IMG/VR virus record: IMGVR_UViG_3300044695_008209
Location: 1 to 64,000 of that record
Reading direction: 5' to 3' (one strand)
DNA length: 64,000 nt
Source of the DNA: a virus
Notes under the pieces: model-generated
What the model was told of the DNA's origin: nothing
What the model saw: only the letters and a program-made list of their open reading frames with translations
Database searches by the model: none
Shown: in pieces, positions 8,212-36,620 of the stretch
Numbering within the stretch: the first letter of the stretch is position 1
How the letters are laid out: each line of letters starts with the position of its first letter
Position numbers and translations under genes: made by a program

Positions 8212-8254
8212 GGTGCAGCCTCCTTTATCATTGGTTGCACCGTGCTTATGACGA

Positions 8255-8998
8255 TTACCCGGAGACCTTCACCCACACGTGGTTGGCCTTGAGGGCGCGC
8301 AGGGCGCTGAGGAGCATCTCGACGTGTGGGTACTTGGACGCGTAGTTCGCGCCCAGGGCCAGCTTGGTCGCAGCCACCGTACGCTTCCCGACGATGCCGT
8401 CGGGCTCGCCGATGTCGTACCCGGCGCGGAGGAGCAGGGCCTGCATGAGGCGGTTGTTCGACTGCCACTCACCAGCCTGGCCGACGTCGAGAGCGGAGCA
8501 CATGCAGGCGGTCTCGTACCCGATGCGGGTCTTCACGCCGATCCAGTCGTTCCAGCAGTCGAAGTGCCACCGCTCGCTCTTCTCCTCATCGGGCTTGGAG
8601 ATGATCGGAGTGAAGCCGAAGGGCTTGCCCGTCTCCCAGAGCAGGTCGATCTGCTTGTCGGCCGGCGCACCGGGGAAGACGTTCTTGGTGGACACGTCGA
8701 TCGCGCGCCCGCCCTGGTGGTTGGAGCGTCCGGGCTTGTTGGCCGCGGCGACCGCGGTGGGAGCCTTCCCGACCTTGCCCCCGGCCTCCCAGGCGCTCAG
8801 GTCGTTGAGGTACTTGACGTAGGCGTCGCGGAGGGGCTGCTGCTGAGCGCAGGTGCGCGTCAGGGAGTTGGCGACGAGCTTGCCGCCCTTCGCCTCGACT
8901 GCGGCCTTCCATGCCAGCAGCTGGTCGTGGATGTCATCGGCGCAGACAGCGTTCTTGCCGAACTCGGGGATGGCGACGAGGGGGCGGTACTGGGGCAC
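8255..8998 (-). CDS. endolysin: M15 Zn peptidase plus C-terminal peptidoglycan-binding domain
   Basis: SNHQGGRAID and ERWHFD Zn-ligand motifs; EPDGIVGKRT PG_binding_1-like motif. Confidence 0.85.
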   Translation of the reverse strand: MPQYRPLVAIPEFGKNAVCADDIHDQLLAWKAAVEAKGGKLVANSLTRTCAQQQPLRDAYVKYLNDLSAWEAGGKVGKAPTAVAAANKPGRSNHQGGRAIDVSTKNVFPGAPADKQIDLLWETGKPFGFTPIISKPDEEKSERWHFDCWNDWIGVKTRIGYETACMCSALDVGQAGEWQSNNRLMQALLLRAGYDIGEPDGIVGKRTVAATKLALGANYASKYPHVEMLLSALRALKANHVWVKVSG

Positions 8999-9071
8999 GG
9001 CAGCTCCTGGGTTGGGGGGTGGTCTCCCCTAACAAGAGAACCCCCGAGCGGGCTCTCTGTCCACCGATCGC

Positions 9072-9522
9072 TCACCCCTCCAGGGAGGTGAGGTGCTCGA
9101 TGCCCTTGCCGCGTTTCACGACGGCCTTCACGACAGCACGCAGTGTCGTACCGATCGCCGGCACCCCTCGGAGCATCTCGCGCACCATGGGCTCGCGGAG
9201 CAGCTCGTTGCTGTAGACGGGCTTCGTGCCCTCCGCGCACGAGATGGTGATGTGCGGGACCTCGTTCAGCCCCACCAGCCCGGCCGGACCGGCGATGGCG
9301 GCGGCTTGGCCGCGGTCGTCAGCGGCGAACCCGATCATGGTGTAGTCGACCTCCTTGCCGAGCAGTGCGAAGAGAGGGTCGTCCTCCTTCGGCTTGAAGC
9401 TCAACGTGATGTGCTCGGCGTAGACGGACAGCGTGCAGGGGCGGAACTGCGGCGAGCAGGCGCGCCTTGGATTCGGTGGTGAGGAACGCGCCGATGTAGA
9501 TGACCTGGGAGCGAGTGACCAT
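9072..9522 (-). CDS. 2H phosphoesterase (two HxT motifs), interrupted by an apparent +1 frameshift near 9426
   Basis: MVTRSQVIYIGAFL...PPLHAV in one frame joins VYAEHITLSF...PHITIS in the next; span 451 nt = 150 codons + 1. Confidence 0.7.
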
Positions 9523-9699
9523 GGTTTGACCTCCATCCTCCTTATGCCGATTCGAGCTAAGAAATAGAGCACGCGGTGTGCGTGGCAGGGCTTGACCCCC
9601 ACCACGCACACCGACTTCAGCTTACTCGTCGTCCCGCCCAGGAACATCCAGGCTTTTGCGGGCTAACGAGCGACCACCTCTGCAGGTGGTCGCCTCTTC

Positions 9700-9984
9700 T
9701 CACTGCCAGGGATCTCCCACCGGCTGCTCCGCCTCCACCGCCTGGGCGTAGAGCCCGCGCAGCTCCGGCCGGTCCGCAAGAAGCTGCGTCCACCGCAGCA
9801 CCCCATCCTCCGTCTTGTCGAGCCGGAGGAAGAAGTCTCCCCAATACGCGACGTCACCGACCTCGACCCCATGGGCAGTGACGAGCGCCTCACCCGTCTT
9901 GGTGATGTCGGCGTCCGGCAGGTAGACCGTCTTCTTGTACTTGTAGCCATCCCCCTCGGGGGAGAACGTCCTGATTCGCTGCAT
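9700..9984 (-). CDS. hypothetical protein (94 aa)
   Basis: GAGGTGAAC-ATG start. Confidence 0.75.
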   Translation of the reverse strand: MQRIRTFSPEGDGYKYKKTVYLPDADITKTGEALVTAHGVEVGDVAYWGDFFLRLDKTEDGVLRWTQLLADRPELRGLYAQAVEAEQPVGDPWQ

Positions 9985-10010
9985 GTTCACCTCGGTTGCA
10001 GTGGTTGTTG

Positions 10011-10256
10011 CTACTCCAGCGGAACGACGAGTTCGTCCGCATACCAGAAGCCGGCGTTCTCCCGGCCCTTGTCATCCGCCACACGCTTCTGCTGCTCGTG
10101 GCCCTCGATGAGGACGCGGTAGAGGACCACTTCCCCGCGGTTGTCCTCCTTCTTCTCCCGGGCGGTGATCCGCCCCTCACCGCCCGGGTCGTGACCCCCG
10201 CGCGACGGTAGAACCCTCACACGCTCCTGCATCTCGAACCTGTAGCTGGCCGACAT
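10011..10256 (-). CDS. hypothetical protein (81 aa, SH3-like beta pattern)
   Basis: GGAGGTC RBS; CATAAG at 10286-10291. Confidence 0.7.
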   Translation of the reverse strand: MSASYRFEMQERVRVLPSRGGHDPGGEGRITAREKKEDNRGEVVLYRVLIEGHEQQKRVADDKGRENAGFWYADELVVPLE

Positions 10257-10376
10257 CTTGACCTCCTGTTGTTGGTGCTACTGTCCTTATGACCAGAGTG
10301 GCCTTCCTTCTGCGTCCGAGCGCCTGCCGAGGACACGGCACTTCGGTTACCCTGCTCGAGCAGGAGCGCGTAGTAA

Positions 10377-10790
10377 ATGAGCACCGACCCGCACGATCAC
10401 CCTCCGCCCAAAGCCATGGACCCGATCGCGGAGTGGATGCTGGAGATGACAGCGTCGCTCGAGCGGCTCTCCGCGCGTGTGCAGGCTGCCGAGAAGTCGG
10501 TGGACCAGCACGGTATTGCGCTCACGGCCAACAACGCGACCGCGGCGGCGGCGGCCAGTGCGCTGACGCGCATCGCAAAGACCGAGGAGGACCGCCTCGT
10601 CTTCGAGCGCCAGCTGGAGGCCGCGAAGAAGGAAGACGCAGCCGCCGAAAAGCTCAGATCAGACCAGTGGATGCAACGCTTCTGGGGATCGCAAGCAGTG
10701 CAGCTCCTGTTCCTGGGCATCGTGCTGGCGCTCTTGCAGTATCTCGGGGTCTCGCACATGCTGAGTCAGATCAAGGGGGTGGCTCCGTGA
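10377..10790 (+). CDS. coiled-coil membrane protein, holin-like
   Basis: Coiled-coil N-terminus, single C-terminal hydrophobic helix AVQLLFLGIVLALLQYLGV; near endolysin. Confidence 0.55.
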   Translation: MSTDPHDHPPPKAMDPIAEWMLEMTASLERLSARVQAAEKSVDQHGIALTANNATAAAAASALTRIAKTEEDRLVFERQLEAAKKEDAAAEKLRSDQWMQRFWGSQAVQLLFLGIVLALLQYLGVSHMLSQIKGVAP

Positions 10791-11002
10791 CGCGTGCGAC
10801 GGACTTGGCCCAAGAAGCTGCGACCGGCCTCGAGACCCTGAGGTCGCGCACCACCCCGGAGACCACGATCGTCGCCCGGAACATGCTGAGCCGCCTGCGC
10901 CTGCTGAAGGACGCAGACGAGCTAAGAGAGCGCCCCTCCCCAGAGGAAGGGGCGCCCAGCCCGGACGGCCCGCAGCGACGCGCTACGCCAGCTCGTCCTT
11001 GA
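10787..11002 (+). CDS. hypothetical protein (GTG start)
   Basis: GTGA overlap with the membrane protein gene. Confidence 0.45.
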   Translation: MTRATDLAQEAATGLETLRSRTTPETTIVARNMLSRLRLLKDADELRERPSPEEGAPSPDGPQRRATPARP

Positions 11003-12470
11003 GGCTCGCGACCTGCGTCCGCAGGCGCCGCACGCTGCCCCCGATCTTCTCGCTCGTGATGCGGACCTCCTCCTCGATGCTGTTCGCCGCAGAGCGGATG
11101 GTCTCGCACTTCTTCCCGATGTTCGCCACTCGCTCGACCATCTTCTCGATCTCGGCGATCTCGGTGTCGACCTTGCTGAAGTCGAAGTCGACGGCGTCCT
11201 TCTCGCGCGCGGCCTTGGCGATGAGCGCCGTGGCCAACGCATGCGCCGCCTCGAGGTAGACGAGCGAGCGGTCGTCGTCTTGGTCCCACACGACGAGCAC
11301 GCAGTCCCCGATGCGCCGCAGCGGCTTCATCCCCTCAGGGGCCGTGCGCTTGCTGAACACGAAGACGCCGACGCGCGCGTCGCGGTTCTTCATCCCGACA
11401 TCGATCTCTGCGAGCGCCTTGGTGTCCCCGTAGGACTGGTCCTCCTTGGCCTCATAGACGATCTTCTGACCAGCGCCCAGGCGGTCCGGGCCGATGGTGA
11501 TGACCGCGTCGCCGACCTTGCAGTTGCGCACGAGCCCCGTGGTGTTGCCCGTGGCGTCGAAGAGCTCGCCGGCGTTCTCGGCCATGGCCTCCAGCTGCGT
11601 GAGCAGAGCGAACTCGAAGACCTGCCCGTGCTGCGTGCCCGTAGCACCGACCCGCTTCTTCTCGTCGAAGCGCACCAGCATCTCGAGCACGCTGGTCTGG
11701 AAGTCCTGTTGCGAGCGTCCGAGCTCCGTGATGCGCCCCTCGAGCGTGAGACGGAGGCGCGTGAGGGCGCTCGCCTCGTTGTCGAGAGTGAGTTCCGCGA
11801 CGCTCTTCGCCGCGGCGGCGTCCACCCGCTGCACCAGGCGGGAGAGGGCCGAGTCGTTCTTGTCGAGGGAGAGCTCGGTGGTGAGCTGCGTGTTGCTCTC
11901 GGACACCTCGCGCAGCAAGCGCGACAGCGCGGAGTCTGGCCTGTCGAGGCTGAACTCGGAGAGCACCGCCGTGCGCTGTGCCTGGATGCCGTCCTGCAGG
12001 AGCTTCTCGATGCGCGCCCGCAGGCCGCTCTCCTGTCCAGGGTCGAGCATGCGGAGCAGGGGGCTGCCCTCGCCGATGTAGCGCAGCAGCGTCTTCGCGA
12101 CGGTGCCGCTCTCCCCGACGTGGGCCATCACGGCTCCGTTGAGGAGGTCGATGTGCGCGATGCTGCCCGCACGCAGCTTCGCGATGCTGGCCTCGAGCGC
12201 CCCCGTGCTGGGGTCGAGGTAGCGCGCGAGCTCCTGCGAGGTCGTCGTCGCCACCTGCGTTGCGTGGGCCGTGAGGACCGCGCGCACCTCGCCGATGACG
12301 TGGGCGCCCTCGTTGCGCATGGCCTCGACGTCCATCGCACCCTCGGCGTTGCTCAGAGCGAGCACGCCGATCCGGAGAGCGAGGCGAGCACGCTGGAGCA
12401 TGTCCAGGCTGTTGTTCTTCGTGAGGTAGGCAACGACCTCGGGGTCGTTCACAGAGAGGTTCAGTTCCAT
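10983..12470 (-). CDS. long coiled-coil protein with PD-(D/E)XK nuclease-like domain (RmuC/DUF2130-like)
   Basis: Repeating coiled-coil, then HGQVFE...GDAVITI...IVYEAK, then coiled-coil. Confidence 0.6.
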   Translation of the reverse strand: MELNLSVNDPEVVAYLTKNNSLDMLQRARLALRIGVLALSNAEGAMDVEAMRNEGAHVIGEVRAVLTAHATQVATTTSQELARYLDPSTGALEASIAKLRAGSIAHIDLLNGAVMAHVGESGTVAKTLLRYIGEGSPLLRMLDPGQESGLRARIEKLLQDGIQAQRTAVLSEFSLDRPDSALSRLLREVSESNTQLTTELSLDKNDSALSRLVQRVDAAAAKSVAELTLDNEASALTRLRLTLEGRITELGRSQQDFQTSVLEMLVRFDEKKRVGATGTQHGQVFEFALLTQLEAMAENAGELFDATGNTTGLVRNCKVGDAVITIGPDRLGAGQKIVYEAKEDQSYGDTKALAEIDVGMKNRDARVGVFVFSKRTAPEGMKPLRRIGDCVLVVWDQDDDRSLVYLEAAHALATALIAKAAREKDAVDFDFSKVDTEIAEIEKMVERVANIGKKCETIRSAANSIEEEVRITSEKIGGSVRRLRTQVASLKDELA

Positions 12471-16553: not shown

Positions 16554-16960
16554 GCTTTCTCCAGGTTGCTTCGGATCTTGTTGATGAGCACCTCTGCGGC
16601 CGCACCGGCTTTCCGGTCGTGCGGGAGGATGGGCTCCGCTCGCATGGCGCCGGCGTAGAGGGTCAGCGCGGCCTCGACCAGGCGCTGCTCTCCCTCGTCG
16701 ATCTCGATGTCGGGCGCTGTGAAACCGACACGCGCTGCCTCGTCTCGCGCACGAAGCCTCGCGATGTACTCCCGCGCCTTCTCCCTGCGCGTAGCCCCCT
16801 TCGAGAGCCACATCTCATGGTTGGTGAGCAGTTCGTGGATCAGCTCCTCCTTTGTGAGGGTGAAGGCCTCGATGACCTGTGCATTCTCGCCAACCAGCAG
16901 AGTGCGCAGCACCGGCTTCTTCAAGAGCTCGAGCTCCTCTCGTACCAGGGGGGTGCTCAC
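16550..16960 (-). CDS. hypothetical protein (136 aa)
   Basis: GTGA overlap, codon bias. Confidence 0.7.
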   Translation of the reverse strand: MSTPLVREELELLKKPVLRTLLVGENAQVIEAFTLTKEELIHELLTNHEMWLSKGATRREKAREYIARLRARDEAARVGFTAPDIEIDEGEQRLVEAALTLYAGAMRAEPILPHDRKAGAAAEVLINKIRSNLEKA

Positions 16961-17565
16961 AGGCCGGCCTTCCGAAGCTCCGCTTTCTCGACCATGCGCT
17001 CGAGCCAGCGGAAGTCTGTCCAGTCCCGCATCTCGTAGTCGTGAGACGTCGAGTCACGGTTCCACCGCTGCTCGAAGAGCACGTGCTCCCACACGGGTTC
17101 GGGCTCGCCCCTCTTGAGCGTGTAGGTGCGGAGGTCGGGTCGGTCGTCGATGAGCGCGTCCGCGTTCACCAGGGACTTCTTCTTGATGATGTGCGCCCGG
17201 TCGGCCCACCAGTCGCCGAGGTTCTTGCGGATCCAGTACAACTTCTCTGCCGTACAGTTGGGGTGCTCGTCCAGGGGCTTCGAGCAGATGCGCACGTCGT
17301 GCATGCCCGCCAGGTGCTCCACACCGGCGAAGCCACCGGGGATGAGCTCCATGGACTCGAAGAAGCCCGGCTCGACCGTCACGGCCCGGGCTGCACGGGC
17401 CGCTTCCTTGCCGTGCGCCTTCGTGTAGGCCCCGGTGCCGTAGAAGTCCCACACGCGGGAAGGGTGGACAGTCGGCAGACCTCGTTCGGTCAGGATGTCG
17501 TAGCGGCGCTTCTCGAAGTCGGCGAGGACGCCGTCCAGGTCGACGAGGAGGACGAGTTCCGTCAC
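16957..17565 (-). CDS. 5'(3')-deoxyribonucleotidase (NT5C, HAD superfamily)
   Basis: LVDLDGVLADF (HAD motif I), ICSKP, EKLYWI, KKKSLVNADALIDDRP. Confidence 0.88.
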   Translation of the reverse strand: MTELVLLVDLDGVLADFEKRRYDILTERGLPTVHPSRVWDFYGTGAYTKAHGKEAARAARAVTVEPGFFESMELIPGGFAGVEHLAGMHDVRICSKPLDEHPNCTAEKLYWIRKNLGDWWADRAHIIKKKSLVNADALIDDRPDLRTYTLKRGEPEPVWEHVLFEQRWNRDSTSHDYEMRDWTDFRWLERMVEKAELRKAGL

Positions 17566-18172: not shown

Positions 18173-18174
18173 GG

Positions 18175-18707: not shown

Positions 18708-18797
18708 GCTCACCTCTGACAAAGTTGGTTGCAGCTCGCTTATGACAGCTAAAGGGACGGGCTGCGGGCCCCGTCCACCACCCGTGGAGAGATGCGA

Positions 18798-19152: not shown

Positions 19153-19569
19153 TTATGACGTGGGCGGTTGCGGACTTTCGAGAACCTCGCAGACCTGGGC
19201 GTCCGGTGTCACCAGCCAGAGTTCGGTCTTGTGGGTCAGCTCGTTGTACCACTCGACCTTCACTGGAAGGAGGAGCATCGGGGGCAGCACATGGCGGAAG
19301 AAGTACAACACGGTGTCGTCGGCCCCCGCCTTGATGGAACAACACACGTGCCACGTCGGCACCCCGCTCACGTCCTGCACGTCGCGCGCCTGTTCCCAGC
19401 CATCCGGTTCGTAGCTCAGGGACCCGAAAGGGATGAAGTGCGCGCGAGGCATGGCTGCGAAGGAGTCGTGGATGGTGTCCCAAGACCCCCAGTGCAAGAG
19501 CGTGCGTACCCGGGCTGCTCCCTGCGGTGTGAGCGCGGCCGTGAACCTCAACGAGTAGTAGTCGCCCAT
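19153..19569 (-). CDS. hypothetical protein (138 aa)
   Basis: TGATG overlap; its TAA stop lies inside the next CATAAG. Confidence 0.65.
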   Translation of the reverse strand: MGDYYSLRFTAALTPQGAARVRTLLHWGSWDTIHDSFAAMPRAHFIPFGSLSYEPDGWEQARDVQDVSGVPTWHVCCSIKAGADDTVLYFFRHVLPPMLLLPVKVEWYNELTHKTELWLVTPDAQVCEVLESPQPPTS

Positions 19570-20663
19570 CAGGCCCTCACGATGACGGTCTTCGTCGGTG
19601 GTTTGGGGAGGTCAGCACCCTGGAGGTAGGGCGCCAGCAGGTATTCGACCAGGTAGAGTGGGCCACCCTTCCCCTCCTTCGTCTCGAGCACGCGCTCCTT
19701 GGCGGCGTCCTTCACCCAGTAGCGATGGAAGTGCCCCGAGATGTACTTCGGGTGCTTGAGCTTGCGCTCGGGAGCAGCCGCCTCCTCACGACCCTCGGCA
19801 GGGCGCGCGCTGCGCACCGTCTTGCTCAGGCTGAGCACGGTGTACGCGTCGAGGGTCTTCCCGCCCTCCTCCAGCAGCTTCTTCGCCTTCGCCGGTCTGC
19901 GCTTGGCCATCTTCTCGCCCATCTCGGGCTGCCGGCGCTCCGCCACCACGCTGGTGGTGTTCTGCATGGCATACAGCAGGTTCACGACCACGCGCTCGAG
20001 CTCGGCGATGCCGCCGAAAGCGTGCTTCGTGCCCTCGCCCAGCGGGATGCCCGGGCACAGGTGGAACACCACCAACGCGTCGTCCCGCATCTCCTTCAGG
20101 TTCCAGCGGAAGCCCTTGGGGCGGCCCACGCCGACGCAAGTGATGCCTTGGATGGCCTGGTACCCATCATCCGTGCTCACTACGGTGCGCTTCCCGTTCT
20201 TCAGGTGCTCGACTGTGTGGAAGTTCGGTGCGCCATCCTCGCCGCGGGGCACGGCGATGAGGTCCTTCACCAAGTAGAAGCCCTCGACCAGGTGCCGGCT
20301 CGTGTCGGGGTTCTCGATGTCGAACAGCGGGGGCAGGGTGACGTACATCCCGTTGTCTGGGATCCACGCTGGCAGGTCGAAGGTGCTCATGGGCATCTCC
20401 GTGTGCGTCAGCGTCTCGGCCAGCCCCTCCTCGAGGAAGTACACGGCCCTGCCGTTGTCCTTCCACGCCAGGAGGGCGAAGCACATGGCGCCCTGCGCCG
20501 TGTCGAAGCCGTCTCCGAGCCCGTCGAGCAGGCCTTGGATCTGACCAGAGGAGCGCAGTTCGCCTTCATCGAACTGCGCGCGCAGCGCAGCGTAGAGCGG
20601 GGGTCCGTAGATGCCCGCGAACATGATCTCGGGGTGTTGTTGCGAACGTGGGAGATACTTCAT
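19569..20663 (-). CDS. conserved hypothetical phage protein (364 aa, C-terminal GHFHRYW motif)
   Basis: Full CATAAG/GAGGTGAAC cassette start, strong codon bias. Confidence 0.8.
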   Translation of the reverse strand: MKYLPRSQQHPEIMFAGIYGPPLYAALRAQFDEGELRSSGQIQGLLDGLGDGFDTAQGAMCFALLAWKDNGRAVYFLEEGLAETLTHTEMPMSTFDLPAWIPDNGMYVTLPPLFDIENPDTSRHLVEGFYLVKDLIAVPRGEDGAPNFHTVEHLKNGKRTVVSTDDGYQAIQGITCVGVGRPKGFRWNLKEMRDDALVVFHLCPGIPLGEGTKHAFGGIAELERVVVNLLYAMQNTTSVVAERRQPEMGEKMAKRRPAKAKKLLEEGGKTLDAYTVLSLSKTVRSARPAEGREEAAAPERKLKHPKYISGHFHRYWVKDAAKERVLETKEGKGGPLYLVEYLLAPYLQGADLPKPPTKTVIVRA

Positions 20664-20739
20664 GGTTCACCTCACGGCCCTTATGACAGGAACAACCCGG
20701 AGCTAAACGGACAGCGGCCCCCGTGGGCTTGTCCTCCTC

Positions 20740-21396
20740 TCAGCTCGGACGCAGCGTGGTATTCAGCAGGAGCATGGCCTCGTGGGCCCGCTCTCTGCGC
20801 TCCGGGACGTGCACGTCGGGGTGCACGAGCCCAGCGAGCAGCCTCCACTCCTTCTTGCCGATGGTCGGTGTTGTCTCCCGCATTGCCCGCAGGCGCTCGA
20901 GGTCGACCTGTGCCTGGAGCTTCGCGAGTTCGGCCTCATCCCGCTCGCGCGCAAGCTGTTTCATCATGACCCGCATCGCCCCGACCTCCTCTGCCGCTAC
21001 GCGGCGCTCTTCGGCTACCTGCTTGAGGTTGCGCACCTCGCTGCGCAGGTGCTCATTGGCCTCCGCGAGCTGGGTCACACGTGCGAGTGCGTACGTCGCC
21101 TGCGCCTGCTCAGACTCGAACGCGCGAGTGACCTGCATGAGCATCTCCTCTCGCCGGTGGATGCGGTCGCGCGCTCCTTTCAGCACGCGGGCCAGCCTGT
21201 CGAGGTCAAGGCCCTCGGTCTCGAAGCGCTGCAGGCGCCTCAGCTCCACCATGTCGGCCCGGTGGCGCGCGCGCATCTCTGCAAGCACGCTGTTCGCCTC
21301 GTGGAGTTCGGCCTGGAGTTCTGCGTTCGAGCTCATGAGCTCTTCCCGCACTGTGAGCTTGGCCGCCCGGTGCCTTCCGTTTCTTCCCTTACCCAT
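20740..21396 (-). CDS. coiled-coil protein with C-terminal J-domain-like HPD motif
   Basis: KKEWRLLAGLVHPDV...ERAHEAMLLLN. Confidence 0.55.
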   Translation of the reverse strand: MGKGRNGRHRAAKLTVREELMSSNAELQAELHEANSVLAEMRARHRADMVELRRLQRFETEGLDLDRLARVLKGARDRIHRREEMLMQVTRAFESEQAQATYALARVTQLAEANEHLRSEVRNLKQVAEERRVAAEEVGAMRVMMKQLARERDEAELAKLQAQVDLERLRAMRETTPTIGKKEWRLLAGLVHPDVHVPERRERAHEAMLLLNTTLRPS

Positions 21397-21464
21397 GGTT
21401 CACCTCGGAGACTTATGCCCGGATGTACCCGCTAAATGAGGCGCCCAAGGGCGGCGCCTGTCCA

Positions 21465-22282: not shown

Positions 22283-22606
22283 TCAGTACATCAGCTGGCG
22301 CCAGGCGCGCGCCGCGGTGAAGTGTGCGACTGCCCCGACCTGGTGCTCGGGCGGCAGCACCGAGGCTGCCTTGAGGATCTCCGCAGCCCAGGTCGCCGCG
22401 AACACGCCCTTGCCGTGGGCGTTCAGCAGCGCGCGGCTCTGGGCCGTCTGCGCGAGGTCAGGACTCAGCCCCTCCTCGTGGAGCATGCGCAGCACGAGCT
22501 CGGGCCCGAAGCCCTTGTCCACGGTCCCTGAAAGGTGGGCCACCATGCCCGCGATCGAGAAGCGGGCCACCACGCGCACGAAGCGCTCGAAGGTGTTGAA
22601 GTCCAT
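22283..22606 (-). CDS. hypothetical protein (107 aa)
   Basis: TGATG overlap. Confidence 0.7.
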   Translation of the reverse strand: MDFNTFERFVRVVARFSIAGMVAHLSGTVDKGFGPELVLRMLHEEGLSPDLAQTAQSRALLNAHGKGVFAATWAAEILKAASVLPPEHQVGAVAHFTAARAWRQLMY

Positions 22607-23076
22607 CAGCGCCACACCACGGCGGCGCCGATGTCCAGCAGCTGCTGCACACCCGGGGACTCGAGGTTGCGCACGCCGAGGCTCTTGGGCAGAGACTCGA
22701 CCAGGTCCTTGGCCTCCTTGAGCCCGAGGTCGGTGATGCTGCGCACGGCCTTGATCGTCTCGATCTTCCCGCTGGTGACCCAGGCACCGGAGTCCGTCTT
22801 CCTGTCCTCCGCCATCTTCAGGAGCCACAGGTCGCCGTTGAGGAGGGGAGGCCTCGTTGGCGACACACCGGCCTCAGCGGCGTCCTTCAGGGCCACGATG
22901 TGGTTGAGGGTGTTGGTGAGCAGTCGGGAGAGCCCGGCTGCCGTCTCCAGCAGCACCGACAACTCCGGGTCGGTCTTCCGCATCGGGATGCCGAGGTTGC
23001 CGAGCTCGTGCGCGATGTACTCGGCGTACGTGGCGCACCCGCGGATGCGGTCGTGGGGTTCAGGGACGTTGGACAT
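22606..23076 (-). CDS. protein with C-terminal ribosomal protein L7/L12 (bL12) CTD
   Basis: GKIETIKAVRSITDLGLKEAKDLVESLPK matches the bL12 CTD signature. Confidence 0.8.
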   Translation of the reverse strand: MSNVPEPHDRIRGCATYAEYIAHELGNLGIPMRKTDPELSVLLETAAGLSRLLTNTLNHIVALKDAAEAGVSPTRPPLLNGDLWLLKMAEDRKTDSGAWVTSGKIETIKAVRSITDLGLKEAKDLVESLPKSLGVRNLESPGVQQLLDIGAAVVWR

Positions 23077-23154
23077 GGTTGACCTCCGCAGTTCTTATGG
23101 CCGCAAACCTGCAGATCTAAAGAACAGAGCCCCTGCGGGTTGTCCTTGCAACCG

Positions 23155-23367
23155 TCAGTCCTTGCCGTCGCCGGTGTAGCCGGGGGGCTGCTGCACGGTC
23201 GCAGTAGCGGCGAGGTCGTACTCACCCGTCGGCATGTCCCTCTGGTCGAGGACAGGTGTGACGGAGGTGTTGAGATCGAGCACGCTCATGTTGAAGTGCC
23301 TCACGATGTACTCCTTGCACGCCTGAGCGATCTCTCTCTTGGTCAAGGTGATCTTCATCGTGGCCAT
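23155..23367 (-). CDS. hypothetical protein (70 aa)
   Basis: TGATG overlap. Confidence 0.65.
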   Translation of the reverse strand: MATMKITLTKREIAQACKEYIVRHFNMSVLDLNTSVTPVLDQRDMPTGEYDLAATATVQQPPGYTGDGKD

Positions 23368-24861: not shown

Positions 24862-24940
24862 CTTGACCTCCACCATGCTTATGACCGTTTACGGCTAAAC
24901 GAACAGCACCCACTGGGTGTGTCCGCCCACCTACCGTTCC

Positions 24941-25213
24941 CTACTCCGGATACAGCACGAGTTCGCCAAACTGCACGTTCAGCGCACACGCCAGGTCCAT
25001 CAACGTGTTCAATCGCGGATTGCTCGTGCCGGACTCGATGGCGACCACCGTGGCGCGCGACATGCCAGATGCTTCGGCCATCTCGGCCTGCGTCCACCCT
25101 TTCGCCAGACGCCACCGCACGATGTTGCGCGCCAACGTCATCCCCAACCCGTCTCCGTCTCGATGGAGGAGAAAGTCATTGGCGCGGTTGATGTGTGTTG
25201 GGACAGAAGACAC
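24941..25213 (-). CDS. XRE-family HTH transcriptional regulator
   Basis: NIVRWRLAKGWTQAEMAEASGMSRATVVAIESGTSNPRLNTLMDLACAL. Confidence 0.92.
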   Translation of the reverse strand: MSSVPTHINRANDFLLHRDGDGLGMTLARNIVRWRLAKGWTQAEMAEASGMSRATVVAIESGTSNPRLNTLMDLACALNVQFGELVLYPE

Positions 25214-25289
25214 GTTCACCTCAAGCTCCTTATGACCGATTCAAGGCAGGTCTAATGAACAGAGCCCCCGTGAGGAGGATGTTCGCGCC

Positions 25290-25673
25290 TCAGTCCCACA
25301 CCATGCGACGCACATCGGCCCAGGACCCCATCGGCTGCCCGAGTCCTTCGGCGACGTAGATGACGAGTGCGGCCTTGTAGACGTGGACCTGCATCTCCAT
25401 CAGCTGTCTCTTCGGGTACAGGTCCAGCAGCTGCTTGCCGTCACCGGCATAGTACGAGCGCACCTGGTCTTCACGCTCGAACAGCTGCGCGTACAGCATG
25501 TCCATGTCAGCGGCGTACCTCAGGCGCCGAGGCGCAAGCCGCCGCACGGCCTCAAGCGCTTCAGGCACTTTCGCCCAGTAGCGATCTACGACCGGGAAGA
25601 CAGTCCCAGAACAGGCCTCGGAGAGATCCTGCTTGAGTCGTACCGTCTGGTACATCCCCAGGGACAGGCCCAT
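25290..25673 (-). CDS. hypothetical protein (127 aa)
   Basis: TGATG overlap. Confidence 0.7.
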   Translation of the reverse strand: MGLSLGMYQTVRLKQDLSEACSGTVFPVVDRYWAKVPEALEAVRRLAPRRLRYAADMDMLYAQLFEREDQVRSYYAGDGKQLLDLYPKRQLMEMQVHVYKAALVIYVAEGLGQPMGSWADVRRMVWD

Positions 25674-26293: not shown

Positions 26294-26319
26294 GATTCAC
26301 CTCAAGCTCCTTATGACCG

Positions 26320-27180
26320 CGCATCAACGCGTTTCGCATCAACCGCACCAGGAACAAATCGCCCCAACCGCTCTCGAAGGAACGCACACCACGCACACTA
26401 CAGTACCAAGGACACTCCCGTAGGAACGAAATCGGCGCATCAGGGCACGCAGGGTGAGTAGTGCGCATACAGGTAAGAACAGGGCAAGCTATGCGTTCTA
26501 AGGAATAGCAGAATGGGCTTCTTAGGGCTATTCATACAAGAACAGCATGCGCATAGGCACTCTTGTGTGTAAGAACAGTACGCGTATGGGCCATCTTGAG
26601 TGCACACAGAGTGCGTCAGCAGGGCGAAATCGCGTCTTTGTGTCTGTGGTGAACACCGCCCGGGCCGGATTTGGTCATGTTCACAACACGCACTCCTACG
26701 AGGGTTCTTGTACACGGTGTTTGCGCGCACTTCTTGCACACGCACCCACATGTACGGGCTAACACAATGACGCCACCAAGGGACGCCACCTCCTTGCGGG
26801 GGTGTGCGTGATGGGAGTCGAACCCATAGTTCACTGCTCAACTCTTATGGACGCGTTTCACGCAGATTTGCACACACGCTCATGCACGCTGCAGGACGCG
26901 CACAAGCACTCTCGTAGAGCTTAGCGTGTAGGTCCTTAGGGCCAGAGGAATCGCACCTGGGTGGAAGAAGGGGACACAGAGGTACCCAAGGCCCCAGCAC
27001 GATTTTGCTCGTACCTAAAATCAGCACTAAGACCCCCACTCTGAGGTACCTGAAGTCCTGGGCCGCGTTTGGTGCGTCTTGAAACAGGCACTTTCAGGGC
27101 GACTCCAGAACTGCTACTCCCGACACCAGTCCTACGTTCCACCACATTTCCGGGTACGGGAATGGTCGTCTTGAGAACGG
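26320..27180. other. ~860-nt low-GC non-coding block (origin/regulatory candidate)
   Basis: No ORF with the genome's codon bias; repeated AAGAACAG, GCGCATA and GCACAC words. Confidence 0.55.
26765..26837 (-). ncRNA. candidate small RNA with T-loop hairpin and GNRA hairpin
   Basis: CATAAG at 26844-26849; ATGGG-TTCGACT-CCCAT; CACCCCC-GCAA-GGAGGTG; GTTAGC at 26758. Confidence 0.4.
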
Positions 27181-27222
27181 GCTAAACAGGCACCCCCTTG
27201 CGGGAGGGTGGCTGTCGTGGCG

Positions 27223-27765
27223 TCAGTCGAATGGCGACCTGGAGAACATCTCCCGGAGCGGCCGCAGGTGCGGCTTCCGGAAGCTGCTGCTCCAGTTGAG
27301 GACCTCGCGCAGGTCCTCCGTCATCCAGCCCTTCGCCTCCAGCTTCGCCCGGAGGCGACGCTGGTACTGCGCGGAGATGGTCGGGGTGTGCCCGCACTCC
27401 GCAGCCGGAAGGCCACGGAAGCTGATATCCCACCCCACCTGCCACTTCCTCTCCTCGGTGGCCTTCTGCCAGGAGTCGAGGTCCTTCCAGGCGGCCGCCT
27501 GGAACGCCACCGCGGCACGGAGCAGGACGGCGACTTCTCGCGCCTCCTCCATCGCCCGAGCCTGGGCCTTCGCGGCACGGGCGGCCCGACGGGCGGCGAT
27601 CCTGGGGGCGCGCTGCTCCGCACGCCAGACGTCGATCGACGCGCGGAGGCGGATGGATGCCGCGAACCGCGCGGGATGCGTGGCTCCGGCGGCCCGGGCC
27701 TCCGCCGCGGTCAGAGTGAGCTTGCGCTCGCGCGGGACTACAACCTTCTTGACGATAGCAGCCAT
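27223..27765 (-). CDS. hypothetical Arg/Ala-rich protein (180 aa)
   Basis: Full cassette start. Confidence 0.75.
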   Translation of the reverse strand: MAAIVKKVVVPRERKLTLTAAEARAAGATHPARFAASIRLRASIDVWRAEQRAPRIAARRAARAAKAQARAMEEAREVAVLLRAAVAFQAAAWKDLDSWQKATEERKWQVGWDISFRGLPAAECGHTPTISAQYQRRLRAKLEAKGWMTEDLREVLNWSSSFRKPHLRPLREMFSRSPFD

Positions 27766-27865
27766 GTTCACCTCACACTACTTATGTCCGAAATGGAGGG
27801 GTTCTTGAGGGCGGGCTAAACGCACGGCACCCTCACGGGGTCGTGCGTTCCACTCGGGGCGCTCG

Positions 27866-28246: not shown

Positions 28247-28435
28247 CGTAGATTCCGGTGACGAGAGGAAGGTTGTAGTTCCCGTCACTCTACTTATGCC
28301 CATAAAAGTACCGTTCTTGCGTCCAGCTAAACGGGCGCCCGCAACGGCGGTTCCCGTCCCTGATGTCGCAGCCTGCGACACAGACCGGGGGAGTCCCCTC
28401 CCCCGGTCCTTCACGCGCGCGAACCGCCGGACGCC

Positions 28436-29213: not shown

Positions 29214-29693
29214 TTATGCGCGGGACCGGAGGGCTCTTGCGTGCTCGCCGGGGTGCAGCACGTACCCGCCGCCGCGGAGCTCGGGCCACAGGTAGGGGAG
29301 GTCCGGGGGCGTGTCGGGCCACAGCAGGCCGTAGTGCGCGGGGTCCTTGCGGCGGAGGTTCGACTGGTGCGCGCGGTGGAAGGAGGGGTCGCCGACCCAC
29401 GGCGGGAGTTCTTCCGGCTCGGTCAGGTCCGCGAGCGCGGCGGTGATCTTGTCGGCGCAGGTGTCTTGATAGCCGCGGCCGGTCCAGGTCTCGCACACCA
29501 CGAGGCCGTAGAAGCAGAGCGCCGGGCGGTGTCCGGCCCACATGCGCGCCGCGGGGTGGTTTCGCCAGCCGGCGCCGTCCGGACCCAGGGCCTTGAGCAG
29601 CTGGAGGACCTCGACGCGCTGCTTGCCGAGGCGCTGCCGGTCGAGCGCGGCCGCGGACGCGTCGAAGGATGGGTAGGGGAGGAAGGTCTGCAC
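29214..29693 (-). CDS. MSMEG_6728-family / pyrimidine-dimer glycosylase (DenV)-like protein
   Basis: MQTFLPYPSF...LDRQRLGKQRVE...HPAARMWAGH...HRAHQSNLRRKDP. Confidence 0.85.
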   Translation of the reverse strand: MQTFLPYPSFDASAAALDRQRLGKQRVEVLQLLKALGPDGAGWRNHPAARMWAGHRPALCFYGLVVCETWTGRGYQDTCADKITAALADLTEPEELPPWVGDPSFHRAHQSNLRRKDPAHYGLLWPDTPPDLPYLWPELRGGGYVLHPGEHARALRSRA

Positions 29694-29781
29694 GGGCGAC
29701 TCCGGGGAGTGCAGGCTTATGCCCGAACGCGCAGGTGCATTGGGCTAAACGGACAGTCCCCCGCGGGGGACTGTCCTCTGC

Positions 29782-30111
29782 TCACGACTCCCGGTCCCCG
29801 AGGAAGTCGGCGGAGGGCATCGTGCGCGTGAAGCGCTTGATGCCGGCCTCGCGGTTCTTCTCGACGGTGCCCAGGTCGTCAACTGCACCGAAGGCCGCGA
29901 ACGCGGACCGCCGGAACTCGTCGACGCTGGTCCGTGCGCCGGTGGCTGCAGTGATGGGGAACACGCGCTCCACCTCCTGCCCGTACTTGCCGAACAGGAC
30001 GATGCAGTGCTCGTTCCGGCCCAGGCCGTTGGAGGGCCACCGCTGCTTGATCCCGAACCGGACCACGATGCCGCCGGCGTCGAGGGTGTCCTCAACGAAC
30101 TCGGCGCTCAC
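29782..30111 (-). CDS. hypothetical protein (109 aa)
   Basis: GGAG upstream, GTGA overlap. Confidence 0.65.
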   Translation of the reverse strand: MSAEFVEDTLDAGGIVVRFGIKQRWPSNGLGRNEHCIVLFGKYGQEVERVFPITAATGARTSVDEFRRSAFAAFGAVDDLGTVEKNREAGIKRFTRTMPSADFLGDRES

Positions 30112-30500: not shown

Positions 30501-30592
30501 GTTCACCTCAGCCTCCTTATGTCCGGATCCTGCACGGGTTTCATCCACTGCCTCCAGCGCCTCAGCTAAAGGGGCGAGCCCCTGGGGGGTGC

Positions 30593-31377: not shown

Positions 31378-31503
31378 ACCTACCTTATGGCGTAGAACCT
31401 GCGGAGTTTCCCCTAAATGGACGCGCCGGGTGGGAGGTAACGAGAGGATGCAGCGACTTTGTCGGTCTGCATCGTTCCCGCCCACCCTCACGTCGAGAGG
31501 ACC

Positions 31504-32076: not shown

Positions 32077-32123
32077 GTTCACCTCACCATACTTATGCCC
32101 AGAATCGGCCGGGGTTTGAGCTA

Positions 32124-32269
32124 AGAAACGGGGGTGGGAGAGGGGGTTTCAGCTGCTCGCGCAGTTTCGCAGTGTGCACCACACCGAGCCGAGTTGCCGG
32201 GGCGTCCCCCGGCGTGTGGACGCGCATCTCTGCGCGTCACTCCTCAGCAGCCCCTCTCCCGGCGTTTCT
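32124..32269. repeat. 146-nt multi-stem inverted-repeat element abutting TTAGC
   Basis: AGAAACG/CGTTTCT, GGGAGAGGGG/CCCCTCTCCC, CTGCT/AGCAG closing stems; internal GACGCGCA-GAGA-TGCGCGTC and GCCGGGG-GAC-GCCCCGGC hairpins. Confidence 0.7.
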
Positions 32270-32339
32270 GACTGGGGCCCGCGCGGACCCCATCCCTACT
32301 CCGCCAGTGCCGCCCTTCCGGGCTTCCCGTTTCCCCACG

Positions 32340-33360: not shown

Positions 33361-33400
33361 GTTCACCTCACTCCTCTTATGCCCGAAGAAGGCCGTATCT

Positions 33401-33450
33401 TGGCTAAAAGAGCGCGACCACCACCGTACTCCCTTCCGGTGGTGGTCGCG
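33401..33450 (-). terminator. intrinsic terminator-like hairpin
   Basis: Perfect 14-bp stem 33413-33426/33437-33450, 10-nt loop, then CTCTTTTAGC on minus strand. Confidence 0.8.
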
Positions 33451-33466
33451 TCTTGTCCTGAAGTAG

Positions 33467-33694: not shown

Positions 33695-33712
33695 AGCACA
33701 CTTATGCCCGAA

Positions 33713-34156
33713 CTACGCGGCGTTTTCCACACGGAAGGTGCCGTCCGGCCAGACGATGAAGACCGGAATGCCGCGCTTCCTGGCCCTGCGGATCGTCGAC
33801 CAGGTGCCCGACCGGAGCTCTTCCTCGAACCCCGCCGGCGCGGCGATGAGGACGTCGCTCTCATCCACGATGTCCTGATTGCGGTCCAGGGGCGGCTTCG
33901 GGGGCCTCTCGCTGAGGTAGTACGGCAGCGCGTCGTGCCACTTCAGGCAGTTCGCCCGCTTCGACGGGATGTCGCATGGGTGCGCGATCACGTTGATGCT
34001 GCGGACGCCGCACAGGTAGTCGAACTCCCCATCGGCGCCGACGCAGTCGCCGTGCCGCGCGAACGAGATGTCCTGCGTGTCCGAGAGCATCTCGCCCACG
34101 CGGAGCTTCTGGGCCCCGGTCATGCCCTTCTGGGTCCCGGTGAACCCGACGATCAT
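33713..34156 (-). CDS. SLOG-superfamily (DprA/YspA-like) nucleotide-binding protein
   Basis: IVGFTG...HGDCVGAD...LDRNQDIVDESDVLIA...SGTWSTIRRARKRGIPV. Confidence 0.8.
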   Translation of the reverse strand: MIVGFTGTQKGMTGAQKLRVGEMLSDTQDISFARHGDCVGADGEFDYLCGVRSINVIAHPCDIPSKRANCLKWHDALPYYLSERPPKPPLDRNQDIVDESDVLIAAPAGFEEELRSGTWSTIRRARKRGIPVFIVWPDGTFRVENAA

Positions 34157-34476
34157 CGGCCGCCCGGCGGGGAGTCGAACTCCGCGACGTCGCAGCGGTC
34201 CCAGTCACCGCAGGAGTTGTTGGCCACCAGGATCGCGACCAGCTTCCAGCGGTAGGGGCCGTAGATTCGGGTCTCGACCTCGGGATTGAAGAAGGGCGGC
34301 GTTACCTTCTGGTGCCGGATGTACCAGCGCGGCGCCGGCAGGCGTGCGAGGAACCTGTGCTTGAGCCCGCGGAAGTACCCGAGGACGAGGGACCAGAGCA
34401 CCGCTCCGGTCGAGAACAGGAAGGAGGCGAAGGCGAACTCGCCGTGGTCGTTGTGCAGGTGCTGGAGCCAGTCCAT
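34153..34476 (-). CDS. small membrane protein
   Basis: Hydrophobic FAFASFLFSTGAVLWSLVLGYF; TGATG overlap. Confidence 0.6.
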   Translation of the reverse strand: MDWLQHLHNDHGEFAFASFLFSTGAVLWSLVLGYFRGLKHRFLARLPAPRWYIRHQKVTPPFFNPEVETRIYGPYRWKLVAILVANNSCGDWDRCDVAEFDSPPGGR

Positions 34477-34850
34477 CAGAGTTTCCTCCCTGCGAGCGCT
34501 GTCTCGAGCACCTGGAAGTGCCCCGTCGCGCGCAGCGCGTACTGCTGGACCCCGCGGTCGTTGACCTCGGTGTCGCCCATGTACTGCACGAACGTGGCTG
34601 CCGCACTCCTGAGGAGGTCGTAGCCCTCCAGCCGCGCGACAGCGTCGTGCTCGCCCGCGAGTGCCGCGTACTCTTCGTCGGTGATGAGCCCGGCGTCGTG
34701 CAGTGCACCGCGCTGGTGCCGTACCAGGTCGTGCTCGCGCTGCTGCGCGTCGAGGCGCGCGACCGCGCAGTTGTGGTGACCCTGCTCGCGCCAGCACCCC
34801 TCGAAGTGGGTCTGTCCGGGGTTCTCCGGGTAGGGAAACTTGGTGCCCAT
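34476..34850 (-). CDS. hypothetical protein (124 aa)
   Basis: GGAGG RBS. Confidence 0.7.
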   Translation of the reverse strand: MGTKFPYPENPGQTHFEGCWREQGHHNCAVARLDAQQREHDLVRHQRGALHDAGLITDEEYAALAGEHDAVARLEGYDLLRSAAATFVQYMGDTEVNDRGVQQYALRATGHFQVLETALAGRKL

Positions 34851-34988
34851 GGGGCCTCCGTGAGAGTGAAGGGGAGGTACCGAACGAGCAGGAGGGACGG
34901 CCCTTGGGGGCCGTCCCTCCTGCTGCCCTCTACTGGCCCGGCAGGCCCGCGCGGATCTTCGGCGTGCGGAGACTGGAGGGTGGAGAGA

Positions 34989-35618
34989 TCAGCCGATCGA
35001 GATCTGGCCGGGGAAGAGGCAGACCTCGGGCGAGCGAGACGCGGCCCACGTCGCCACGTCGGCCAGGAACGCCGCGCGCGCCGCCCGGTAGTCCGTCTGG
35101 ACCCCGAGGCGGACCCCGTTCGTCTGGGCCTTCACGACCACCGTGGTCGTGACGCCGTTCTTCTCGGTCGACCATGTCCAGCTCGACCGCGTCGCGTTCT
35201 TCTTCCGGGTGGTCGAGCTGTTGTCCTCGTCGTCCTCCTCCTCGCTGACCTCGATGGTCTCCTTCGAGACCTGGATCTTGGGGAGATTCTCGGGGCAGCC
35301 GAGTCGCTCGAGGAGGCGCTTCACCTCGGGCCGGTTCGAGTCCCCCTCGGCCTTGTGCACGCCTCCGTCGTCGACGGAGCGGTCGCGGTATCCGCCGTCG
35401 TACACGGCTTCCGCGTGGAGGACGCGGAGGGACACGCGGCGCTCCCCGTCCGCGTTGCGCTCCAGGAACGTGATCTGGGTGGCGAGGGAGCTGCTCTCGT
35501 GGAACAGCATCATCCCTGGGCGGTGGTGCGCGCTCAGGATGTCGGCAAGCGCGCCGGCAGCGGGCGCACCGGTGGTGTTGATGGTGATGTCGCGGGGACG
35601 GGGAGAAGACGAGGACAT
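34989..35618 (-). CDS. hypothetical protein (209 aa)
   Basis: CATAAG at 35658; 16-bp hairpin downstream (~34877-34924). Confidence 0.75.
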   Translation of the reverse strand: MSSSSPRPRDITINTTGAPAAGALADILSAHHRPGMMLFHESSSLATQITFLERNADGERRVSLRVLHAEAVYDGGYRDRSVDDGGVHKAEGDSNRPEVKRLLERLGCPENLPKIQVSKETIEVSEEEDDEDNSSTTRKKNATRSSWTWSTEKNGVTTTVVVKAQTNGVRLGVQTDYRAARAAFLADVATWAASRSPEVCLFPGQISIG

Positions 35619-35794
35619 GAGTGGACTCCTGAGCCGGGTAGTGGATGGCTCAAGGTGCTTATGTCCGGGAACATCGACGTTTGCAGGCTAAGAAACAGGG
35701 TGGTCGTGGGGGCGATTGAAGTGCCCCCGCGCCGCCTACCCGTCAGCAGCCGAGCGCAGCTAAAGAGGCGGACGGGGTCGTGCCGTCGCCCCCG

Positions 35795-36154
35795 TCAGCG
35801 ACTCTCCTCTCGCAGCCACTCGGTGAGGGCCGCGATGCCGAGCTCCACCCCGTCATCGTAGAGCCGGTTCCGGCAGGTCTCCCATAGGTCAGCCACGGCC
35901 CTCCCCACCTCGGCCTCCGTCCAGGAGGCGACAGGATCACGCTCGTCGACCTCCCGCAGGTGCGCCCAGAGCGTCCCGCTCTTCGAGCTCTGGGTGAGCT
36001 CGATGTAGAAGGTCGCCTTCGCGTCGAGACCCAGGATGATGGACCCCTCGTCTACCCCCCGAACGGGAGAGACTTTTCCGCCCTCTACGGCGTCCCGAAA
36101 GACGCTGAGGATGGCCCGCATCTCTGCGGGCCCGTCCAGGTAGGAGCCGCTCAT
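35795..36154 (-). CDS. hypothetical protein (119 aa)
   Basis: ATGA overlap. Confidence 0.7.
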   Translation of the reverse strand: MSGSYLDGPAEMRAILSVFRDAVEGGKVSPVRGVDEGSIILGLDAKATFYIELTQSSKSGTLWAHLREVDERDPVASWTEAEVGRAVADLWETCRNRLYDDGVELGIAALTEWLREESR

Positions 36155-36285
36155 GGCGACCCCAGGACTGAGGCCTGCCAGGCGATGATCGCCCGGTCGA
36201 CTTCGCGGGTGTCCGTCACGAGGTAGAAGACGAAGAACGCGGCCAGAGCCGTGCTCACCAGGAAGCCGAAGAAGTCACAAAGCAT
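36151..36285 (-). CDS. small membrane protein (44 aa)
   Basis: Full cassette start; FFGFLVSTALAAFFVFYLV. Confidence 0.65.
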   Translation of the reverse strand: MLCDFFGFLVSTALAAFFVFYLVTDTREVDRAIIAWQASVLGSP

Positions 36286-36302
36286 GTTCACCTCCGTGCT
36301 TC

Positions 36303-36620
36303 TTATGCCTCTTCGTAGTTCCCCTTTTCGTTCTTCCGGTACTTGACGGTCTCCGTCCCGCGGGAACGCAGGATGGTGTTGATGCTCCTCAGGAACGGGA
36401 GAGGCATGGTGCTGTCCTCGAGCGCCTTCGGGATGGGGACGTCGCCGAGTTCGGCGGCGCGGCCGACCAGGAGCACGAAGCGGATCTCGGTGGTGGTCTT
36501 GGGGTCGACGTACACGCCGGCGCGGACGCACTCCCAGGACACGCCGTCCTCCTCGTCGATGAGGACGTCCCCCGTCTTGGGGAAGAACTTCTTGTGACTC
36601 AGAACACCGATGGCGGGCAT
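36303..36620 (-). CDS. hypothetical protein (105 aa)
   Basis: GGAG RBS; TATAAG variant at 36652-36657. Confidence 0.65.
   Translation of the reverse strand: MPAIGVLSHKKFFPKTGDVLIDEEDGVSWECVRAGVYVDPKTTTEIRFVLLVGRAAELGDVPIPKALEDSTMPLPFLRSINTILRSRGTETVKYRKNEKGNYEEA

Follow-up and report, generated by a model that had tools for sequence, protein, structure and literature searches.

The first 64,000 nucleotides of a virus contig from IMG/VR (record IMGVR_UViG_3300044695_008209, a single contig of 182,777 bp with 66.6% G+C, 99% complete according to CheckV; these 64 kb are called the window below) contain, between 8 and 36.6 kb, an accessory region whose genes are directed leftward throughout, with one exception, and whose gene junctions carry a recurrent module. 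On the minus strand of 8.2-36.3 kb, for which all leftward intergenic regions were printed, 15 junctions share one order: stop codon, GC hairpin, T2-4AG(C), 4-44 nt, (G)GNCATAAG, 5-7 nt, GAGGTGAAC, ATG. This module is real, conserved and functional-looking. The junctions are probably composite terminator-promoter-ribosome-binding site (RBS) signals that make early genes autonomous transcription units. What was observed directly is the anatomy of the motif, its strand specificity, its conservation across five genomes, the turnover of hairpin sequences next to a retained tail, and the occurrence of the two elements apart from each other; that the elements act as terminator and promoter we infer from the sequence. 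The full module is found at about 15 of about 52 gene boundaries, the remainder being mostly tight operons with stop/start overlaps of 1 or 4 nt.

Anatomy of the junctions

A previous sequence-only reading of the window had described a hairpin-TTAGC-CATAAG-GAGGTGAAC module recurring on the minus strand, and this description is borne out by the 15 full junctions, by RNA folding and by repeat analysis. A hairpin was found in 12/12 folded segments (-10.6 to -33.6 kcal/mol), with 0-3 nt between its stem and the T run. Among the direct repeats of the region, the leading families (D1-D4, D6, D10) are those of the promoter-RBS core and the hairpin tail; the core is the top family, with 8-9 copies and one pair that is identical over 24 nt (25215-25238 and 26296-26319). 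Nine start coordinates that had been assigned to clear copies (20663, 21396, 23076, 24861, 25213, 27765, 30500, 32076, and 33360) were recovered by position arithmetic, and six of them are also called gene starts. The junctions, followed by sites that carry one part of the module, are:

35619-35794 (-): two tandem hairpin-TTAGC elements (TTAG 35763, 35691), CATAAG 35663-35658, leader to start 35618
33361-33455 (-): hairpin with 16-bp stem (fold z -6.9), TTTTAGC (33407), 22-nt spacer, CATAAG 33381-33376, GAGGTGAAC 33369-33361, ATG 33360
32077-32339 (-): 263-nt structured junction ending in TTTCTTAGC (32124), CATAAG 32097-32092, GAGGTGAAC, ATG 32076
31384-31503 (-): hairpin, TTTAGG, 23-nt spacer, CATAAG 31389-31384, leader of ~390 nt to ATG 30982
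30501-30592 (-): hairpin (fold), TTTAGC (30569), 44-nt spacer, CATAAG 30521-30516, GAGGTGAAC, ATG 30500
29694-29781 (-): perfect 11-bp hairpin GGACAGTCCCC/GGGGACTGTCC (fold z -5.0), GTTTAGCC (29748), CATAAG 29721-29716
28247-28435 (-): long structured 3' region, TTTAGC (28330), CATAAG 28298-28293, leader with ACTACAACC, start 28246
27766-27865 (-): hairpin (fold), TTTAGCC (27819), 29-nt spacer, CATAAG 27786-27781, GAGGTGAAC, ATG 27765
25214-25289 (-): subfamily hairpin GAACA...CTCTGTTC, ATTAGA, 17-nt spacer, CATAAG 25234-25229, GAGGTGAAC, GTG 25213 (HTH_3 gene)
24862-24940 (-): hairpin (fold), GTTTAGCC (24898), 11-nt spacer, CATAAG 24883-24878, GGAGGTCAAG, ATG 24861
23077-23154 (-): subfamily hairpin GGACA...CTCTGTTC, TTTAGA, 17-nt spacer, CATAAG 23099-23094, GGAGGTCAAC, ATG 23076
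21397-21464 (-): hairpin AGGCGCC/GGCGCCT (fold), CATTTAGC (21435), 14-nt spacer, CATAAG 21417-21412, GAGGTGAAC, ATG 21396
20664-20739 (-): hairpin GGACA...CGCTGTCC (fold), GTTTAGC (20706), 17-nt spacer, CATAAG 20685-20680, GAGGTGAAC, ATG 20663 (AcrVA2-like gene)
18708-18797 (-): hairpin, CTTTAGC (18752), 4 nt, CATAAG 18744-18739, leader, ATG 18707
9522-9699 (-): two tandem hairpin-TTAGC elements (GTTAGCC 9666; 17-bp stem and TTTCTTAGC 9560; fold), CATAAG 9546-9541, GGAGGTCAAA, ATG ~9521
36286-36307 (-): promoter-RBS core with no preceding hairpin, CATAAG 36307-36302
33706, 29218, 26849, 26315, 19157, 10291, 8250 (-): further promoter-only sites
27182-27225 (-): hairpin-TTTAGCC with no following promoter
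26762, 10925, 9666, 9032 (window) and 111621, 132441, 136881, 168150, 182420 (genome): further hairpin-only sites

The window has 27 copies of CATAAG, none of them on the plus strand, against 4.3 +/- 1.9 in shuffled sequence. The whole genome has 37 on the minus strand and none on the plus strand; 23 of these copies lie within 8250-36307. At 16 of the 23 regional sites, GAGGTGAAC (with up to two mismatches) follows 5-7 nt 3' of CATAAG, with ATG or GTG within a further 0-2 nt. When all sites are aligned on CATAAG, an A is present at -19 in 31/37 and a G at -2 in 32/37, position -20 is A or T, and a relative displays the same fixed upstream positions. CATAAG with WA (W, A or T) at the fixed positions -20/-19 is a bipartite promoter-like signal. 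Because CATAAG also stands 5' of long leaders and of non-coding stretches (31389, 33706, 26849), it is better understood as a transcription than as a translation signal. In the region, eight promoters have no preceding hairpin, and several of these lie within the 3' end of the preceding gene. The -7 T of sigma-70 promoters is missing from CATAAG, and a scan for sigma-70 promoters returned no site in 8-28 kb. Leaders of CATAAG units without an immediate GAGGTGAAC share ACTACAACC or GCAACCAA (28247-28292, 18708-18738, 8212-8244, 10257-10285, 54723-54745, all minus strand), words also seen in leaders of two of the related contigs introduced below, L178 and L184.

TTAG precedes CATAAG within 75 nt at 15 of the 23 regional sites, at distances of 4, 10, 11, 14, 17, 17, 17, 22, 23, 23, 23, 24, 28, 29, and 44 nt, which reproduce those listed in the sequence-only reading with a shift of one base. 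A role of TTAGC as a -35 box was considered and rejected, its gap to CATAAG ranging over 4-55 nt: the promoter owns an upstream element at fixed distance, WA at -20/-19, so TTAG is not a -35 box. An exception is a subfamily with 17-nt spacing, in which the TA of TTAG coincides with -20/-19. The assignment of TTAG(C) to the hairpin, as had been proposed, is upheld both by this fixed element and by the separate occurrence of the two parts, since of 28 hairpin-TTAG elements that were detected automatically in the genome, 15 lack a CATAAG within 85 nt.

Several of these elements without a promoter lie far beyond the accessory region at convergent gene ends (111622, 132442, 182421), where they close leftward units, and minus-strand CATAAG units elsewhere in the genome end in hairpin-TTAG (for example at 111622 and 132442). 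Across five genomes, hairpin-T2-4AG elements number 64 on the gene strand versus 15 on the opposite strand, with the T run starting 0-3 nt after the stem. Two junctions in the window carry tandem pairs (35763/35691 and 9666/9560). GC-rich hairpins directly after a stop codon, a U run 0-3 nt past the stem, sense orientation and tandem copies are all shared with intrinsic terminators. As a control, the letters of TTAG were permuted: on the minus strand a hairpin precedes TTAG in 20/36 non-coding cases, against roughly 0-40% for most other words of T, T, A, and G; GTTA, which overlaps GTTAG, scored 5/8, and TTAG on the plus strand 2/12. Automatic "most stable hairpin" pickers over-extended stems, and their output was left out of the counts. 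The possibility that the TAG of TTAG serves as an in-frame back-up stop was rejected, with frames distributed 27:15:13 and none strict. At the convergent gene ends 111622, 132442, 136882, and 182421 of the genome, the complement of the tail, GCTAA or ACTAA, provides the TAA stop of the opposing plus-strand gene.

Taken as terminator-promoter-RBS junctions, each would consist of two separable transcription signals placed back to back. The upstream unit would be ended by a terminator-type element, in which a GC-rich RNA hairpin just behind the stop codon leads into U2-4 and a conserved AG(C). The next unit would be started by a phage-specific promoter with WA at -20/-19, G at -2, and CATAAG as a -10-like box, and its start would lie so near the strong Shine-Dalgarno (SD) sequence GAGGTGAAC that the mRNA begins approximately at the RBS. 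Either the host RNA polymerase (RNAP) or the fused beta-beta' RNAP of the phage may read these signals. The latter is a single 2103-aa polypeptide encoded at 112319-118630 (+), with Rpb2_3/6 and Rpb1_2/3/5 domains (Pfam); a weak, sub-threshold Peptidase_M23 match lies around its residues 1885-1939. A proposed sigma-like gene at 63684-64571 (+) gave a sub-threshold Sigma70_r3 match only, and Sigma70_r2 was not found in the genome. Under this arrangement, blocks of 1-8 genes of the early leftward region would become autonomous, moron-like units whose gain, loss or reshuffling leaves their neighbors undisturbed.

Relatives and the question of recombination

Relatives were identified by a pattern scan, which returned one 188-kb IMG/VR contig with several modules (G001), and by a search with the AcrVA2-like protein of the region, which returned further contigs. 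DNA identity to the window is 80-87% for L178, L179, and L180, 70-82% for L181, and approximately 70% for L184 and L185; a search for very close relatives with indels gave only L182 and L183, both 100% identical to the window. The module is retained in all four diverged lineages (~70-87% identity), while the hairpin sequences turn over. Strand bias is likewise kept: CATAAG is distributed 29:1 and TTTAGC 16:5 in G001, and CATAAG 16:0 in L184, on the same strand. At the 18744 junction, three different stems are found in four phages, all of which keep TTTAGC and GTCATAAG (the L181 spacer is 1 nt shorter). The hairpin of the 10925 junction has been replaced in the same manner with its TTTAGC tail kept, and in the L178 ortholog of the 33407 hairpin a C-G pair has become A-U, a compensatory change. 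Since stems are replaced with the tail kept, and since compensatory change is seen, both fold and tail are under selection.

Of 53 window genes in the region, 29 have orthologs in L178 and 19 in G001. Comparison with the relatives supports the earlier description of an accessory region built from self-expressing cassettes: the region is hypervariable, and its units have their own promoter and RBS. That description had gone further, proposing the hairpin-TTAGC element as a structure-specific recombination or insertion site, attC-like or HUH-type, through which the phage captures self-expressing cassettes. Like integron attC sites, the element is an imperfect hairpin that varies in length, has a short conserved sequence at one of its ends, and is located 3' of small accessory genes, and the region is highly mosaic; a conserved bulge in the subfamily hairpins also fits, and we take TTAGC to resemble the integron core GTTRRRY. 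Searches for an enzyme and the anatomy of the site speak against this. With positive controls working, no match to PF00589 (Phage_integrase) was obtained at E <= 0.1 in the 99%-complete genome, nor any to PF00239 (Resolvase) or PF01797 (Y1_Tnp), so that a search of the genome for a tyrosine, serine or Y1 HUH recombinase produced no candidate. TTAG is unpaired in the folds and TTAGC lies outside the stem, the inverse core GCTAA is found within 70 nt upstream of TTAGC in one of 64 elements, and there is no paired R''/R' core of the attC kind. Integron cassettes are promoterless and depend on a common Pc, whereas the units here each carry their own CATAAG promoter, and the element also ends conserved core transcription units outside the accessory region.

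The positions of rearrangements point the same way. Each leftward gene boundary of the window was scored as kept or broken in four relatives; on these crude and pseudo-replicated counts, synteny is broken at 32/40 boundaries with a module part and at 56/70 module-less tight boundaries, 80% in both (Fisher p = 1). On these counts breakpoints appear random with respect to TTAGC, which is one half of what the sequence-only reading had itself set down as counting against a recombination site. Many gene replacements fall within tight operons: whole gene runs have been swapped inside operons of overlapping codons without any hairpin, for example in L181. L178 and the window yield five chimeric junctions, all within modules, although the relatives are too diverged for base-level calls. 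Partner changes fall just 3' of TTAGC; in the spacer from TTAGC to CATAAG, which then matches neither parent; directly 5' of CATAAG; within the CATAAG-SD core; or at the SD. The first of these (L178_17073 versus the window 28298 junction), where the switch lies at or next to TTAGC, is what an insertion site would predict; the other four are not, and because the switch places differ there is no site-specific or fixed crossover point. A recombination site is on this evidence extremely unlikely. Such scatter would follow if recombinants survived wherever the break fell between a complete upstream and a complete downstream unit, and short conserved islands may sometimes help.

A more active role in exchange has been proposed for T4-type phages, whose promoter-early stem-loops (PeSLs) are described as composite terminator/promoter motifs of hyperplastic regions and as points of exchange (Arbiol et al. 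2010, PMC2839356; Comeau et al. 2014, PMC4122927). By this precedent, module copies would drive cassette exchange by homologous recombination, through deletion, mini-circle formation and re-insertion, a role compatible with terminator-promoter-RBS junctions. The repeated core, with its many copies and its 24-nt identical pair, would offer a substrate, and four comparisons with L178 speak for it: an extra gene-hairpin-promoter unit is inserted in L178 exactly between two promoter-RBS cores; L178_18438 combines the hairpin from window junction 32097 with the promoter and gene of junction 30521; a hairpin matching 23117-23157 at 27/29 nt stands behind a different gene in L178; and the 263-nt junction 32077-32339 is kept there at 87% identity (L178 original coordinates 1640-1920) between other genes. 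Against this, breaks at modules are no more frequent than elsewhere, spacers of chimeric junctions are unlike both parents, and relatives at 70-87% are too diverged to display clean events, the two closer contigs being 100% identical. We regard an active role as possible but hold it tentatively. With terminator-promoter-RBS junctions as the preferred reading, mosaicism among the relatives would be the product of illegitimate or short-homology recombination of the ordinary kind, acting at gene boundaries generally, and the repeated module (24-70 nt) would be one of several homology patches, as with T4 PeSLs.

The hairpin tail and its possible readers

Several properties of the element weigh against an ordinary terminator. 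The U tract is short (2-4, where typical intrinsic terminators have at least 5/8 U), and only two elements pass a standard terminator scan with its 5-of-8 rule. Bases beyond T2-4AG are conserved (C in 44/64, then C/T in 51/64, then C in 36/64), for which the textbook model gives no account, and L184 contains variants, CATAGCC and TGTAGCC, in which the T run is nearly gone and TAGCC is intact. In a subfamily of the form GRACA-N-CCC-loop-GGGnCTC-TGTYC-N-TTAG-N17-CATAAG, the sequence itself, including a 3-nt CTC bulge, is conserved in all five genomes, and these hairpins are only weakly stable (z -0.4 to -1.5). Unlike generic intrinsic terminators, the element is also restricted to one promoter class: at plus-strand operon ends no TTAG-type tail was found. 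Tail, variants and subfamily together suggest that sequence as well as shape is read, by a polymerase, a termination factor, a nuclease or a regulator.

A nuclease is the reader if hairpin-UUAG(C) is an RNA-processing signal, with long early transcripts cut by a host or phage endoribonuclease beside a protective 3' hairpin. The conserved A-G-C-C/T-C beyond the U run, the variants almost without a U tract (ATAGCC, GTAGCC), and the position between genes, always in sense orientation, are as such a signal would have them. If transcription ran through, a fresh promoter would be needless, and yet one, or a convergent gene end, follows nearly every element; the tandem copies are typical of terminators, and no nuclease gene was identified here. 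RNA processing is therefore an unlikely explanation.

Sequence conservation of the subfamily hints at recognition by a protein, and copies (minus strand) are located at 25252-25292, 23117-23157, 20703-20742, 29745-29784, and 24895-24943, and also in G001, L178, and L184, often exactly 17 nt upstream of CATAAG. The 3' arm CTCTGTTC presumably resembles the class II pause/termination motif ATCTGTT of T7 RNAP. Were GRACA...TGTYC instead a DNA operator upstream of some CATAAG promoters, bound by a phage regulator such as the HTH protein encoded at 24941-25213, the outer arms would be conserved in sequence, as they are in all five genomes, and the fixed 17-nt distance to CATAAG, the HTH_3 gene directly behind one copy and the weak thermodynamic stability would follow. 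The inner part argues otherwise, being self-complementary with varying sequence (ACCC/GGGG, AGCCC/GGGGC, TCCTCC/GGGGG), so that a folded strand rather than a duplex spacer appears to be selected, and the same T run and AG tail stand behind unrelated hairpins. An operator is very unlikely.

The conserved AG(C) tail may also be a polymerase-specific termination or processing signal. In its strongest form, CATAAG and hairpin-UUAGC would be a private start/stop code read by the fused RNAP of the phage or by a factor on it, UUAG(C) being a sequence-specific termination or 3'-end signal and not a generic U tract. A private promoter/terminator code is plausible because the phage encodes a 2103-aa fused beta-beta' RNAP, and with the element tied to CATAAG units a polymerase-specific stop signal is the most interesting remaining reading; we nevertheless consider it somewhat doubtful. 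The nearest counterpart would be the signal, likewise sequence-specific, at which the poxvirus virion RNAP terminates early transcription.

Genomic setting and related systems

The accessory products encoded on the minus strand of the region include:

22606-23076 (-): ribosomal L7/L12 C-terminal-domain protein gene
29214-29693 (-): pyrimidine-dimer glycosylase (DenV-like) gene
24941-25213 (-): Cro/CI-type HTH protein (HTH_3) gene
16957-17565 (-): NT5C 5'-nucleotidase gene
8255-8998 (-): VanY-type peptidase gene, with a weak sub-threshold PG-binding match

The gene at 19569-20663 (-) encodes a 364-aa protein assigned to PF26125 (AcrVA2-like) through precomputed matches on an identical protein and on homologs; a direct Pfam-A scan of this protein with a limit of E 0.01 returned no family. 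No other gene of the region is as well conserved (44-92% identity to nine metagenomic homologs), and a related-locus search with the protein as query retrieved nothing. The gene at 27223-27765, checked for another genomic context, is an ORFan. In the annotated phage collection the region has no DNA or protein match, and pattern scanning of genome contigs, together with a looser module pattern in viral contigs, returned isolated chance matches only.

Three non-coding stretches stand apart. The 263-nt junction 32077-32339 (-) folds strongly (about -130 kcal/mol) and lacks its own promoter; it is a candidate for a structured RNA that is co-transcribed and travels as a unit by itself. A stretch of ~930 nt at 26294-27222 (-), conserved in L178, G001, and L184, has no confident open reading frame and contains two CATAAG sites, two hairpin-TTAG elements and a T-loop-like GGTTCGACTCC; ARAGORN returned no tRNA for the window. 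A perfect 17-bp hairpin at 34887-34924 (-), between genes 34989 and 34850, has neither a TTAG tail nor a following CATAAG, and gave a weak Rfam Chloroflexi-1 match (E 0.087, far under the gathering score). Scanning 8-37.5 kb against Rfam returned no credible RNA family match.

Morons of lambdoid and other phages are autonomous promoter-gene-terminator units (the Hendrix/Juhala concept). The units described here are similarly self-contained, with their own promoter and terminator between other genes and with variable gene content. Morons, in contrast, are scattered and expressed from the prophage through host-type signals, whereas here such units are the rule across a 28-kb early region and share one stereotyped, phage-specific promoter and terminator. 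The likeness to PeSLs extends from the short composite motif of stem-loop and promoter (here at 15 junctions) to the many related copies in a hyperplastic early region, the small genes of unknown function that they flank and that differ between related phages, and the chimeric nature of some junctions. The differences are as clear. The phage comes from an unrelated lineage of high G+C content that encodes a fused beta-beta' RNAP; its promoter is CATAAG with WA at -20/-19, where PeSLs carry a host sigma-70 early promoter; the module includes a near-invariant RBS and its terminator a conserved AG(C) tail; and enrichment of breakpoints at the motif was looked for here and not found.

The module is best read as a variation on the PeSL/moron theme in an undescribed phage lineage. 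Should the AG(C) tail be read by the phage RNAP, CATAAG and hairpin-UUAGC would constitute an orthogonal promoter/terminator set, and polymerase specificity would be directly testable in vitro. The module also carries the idea behind PeSLs, stereotyped terminator-promoter junctions framing swappable early genes, beyond T4-type phages, with most gene turnover here not located at such junctions. For this uncultivated lineage of ~183-188-kb high-GC phages, the module maps approximately 37 predicted transcription starts and approximately 30 predicted ends.

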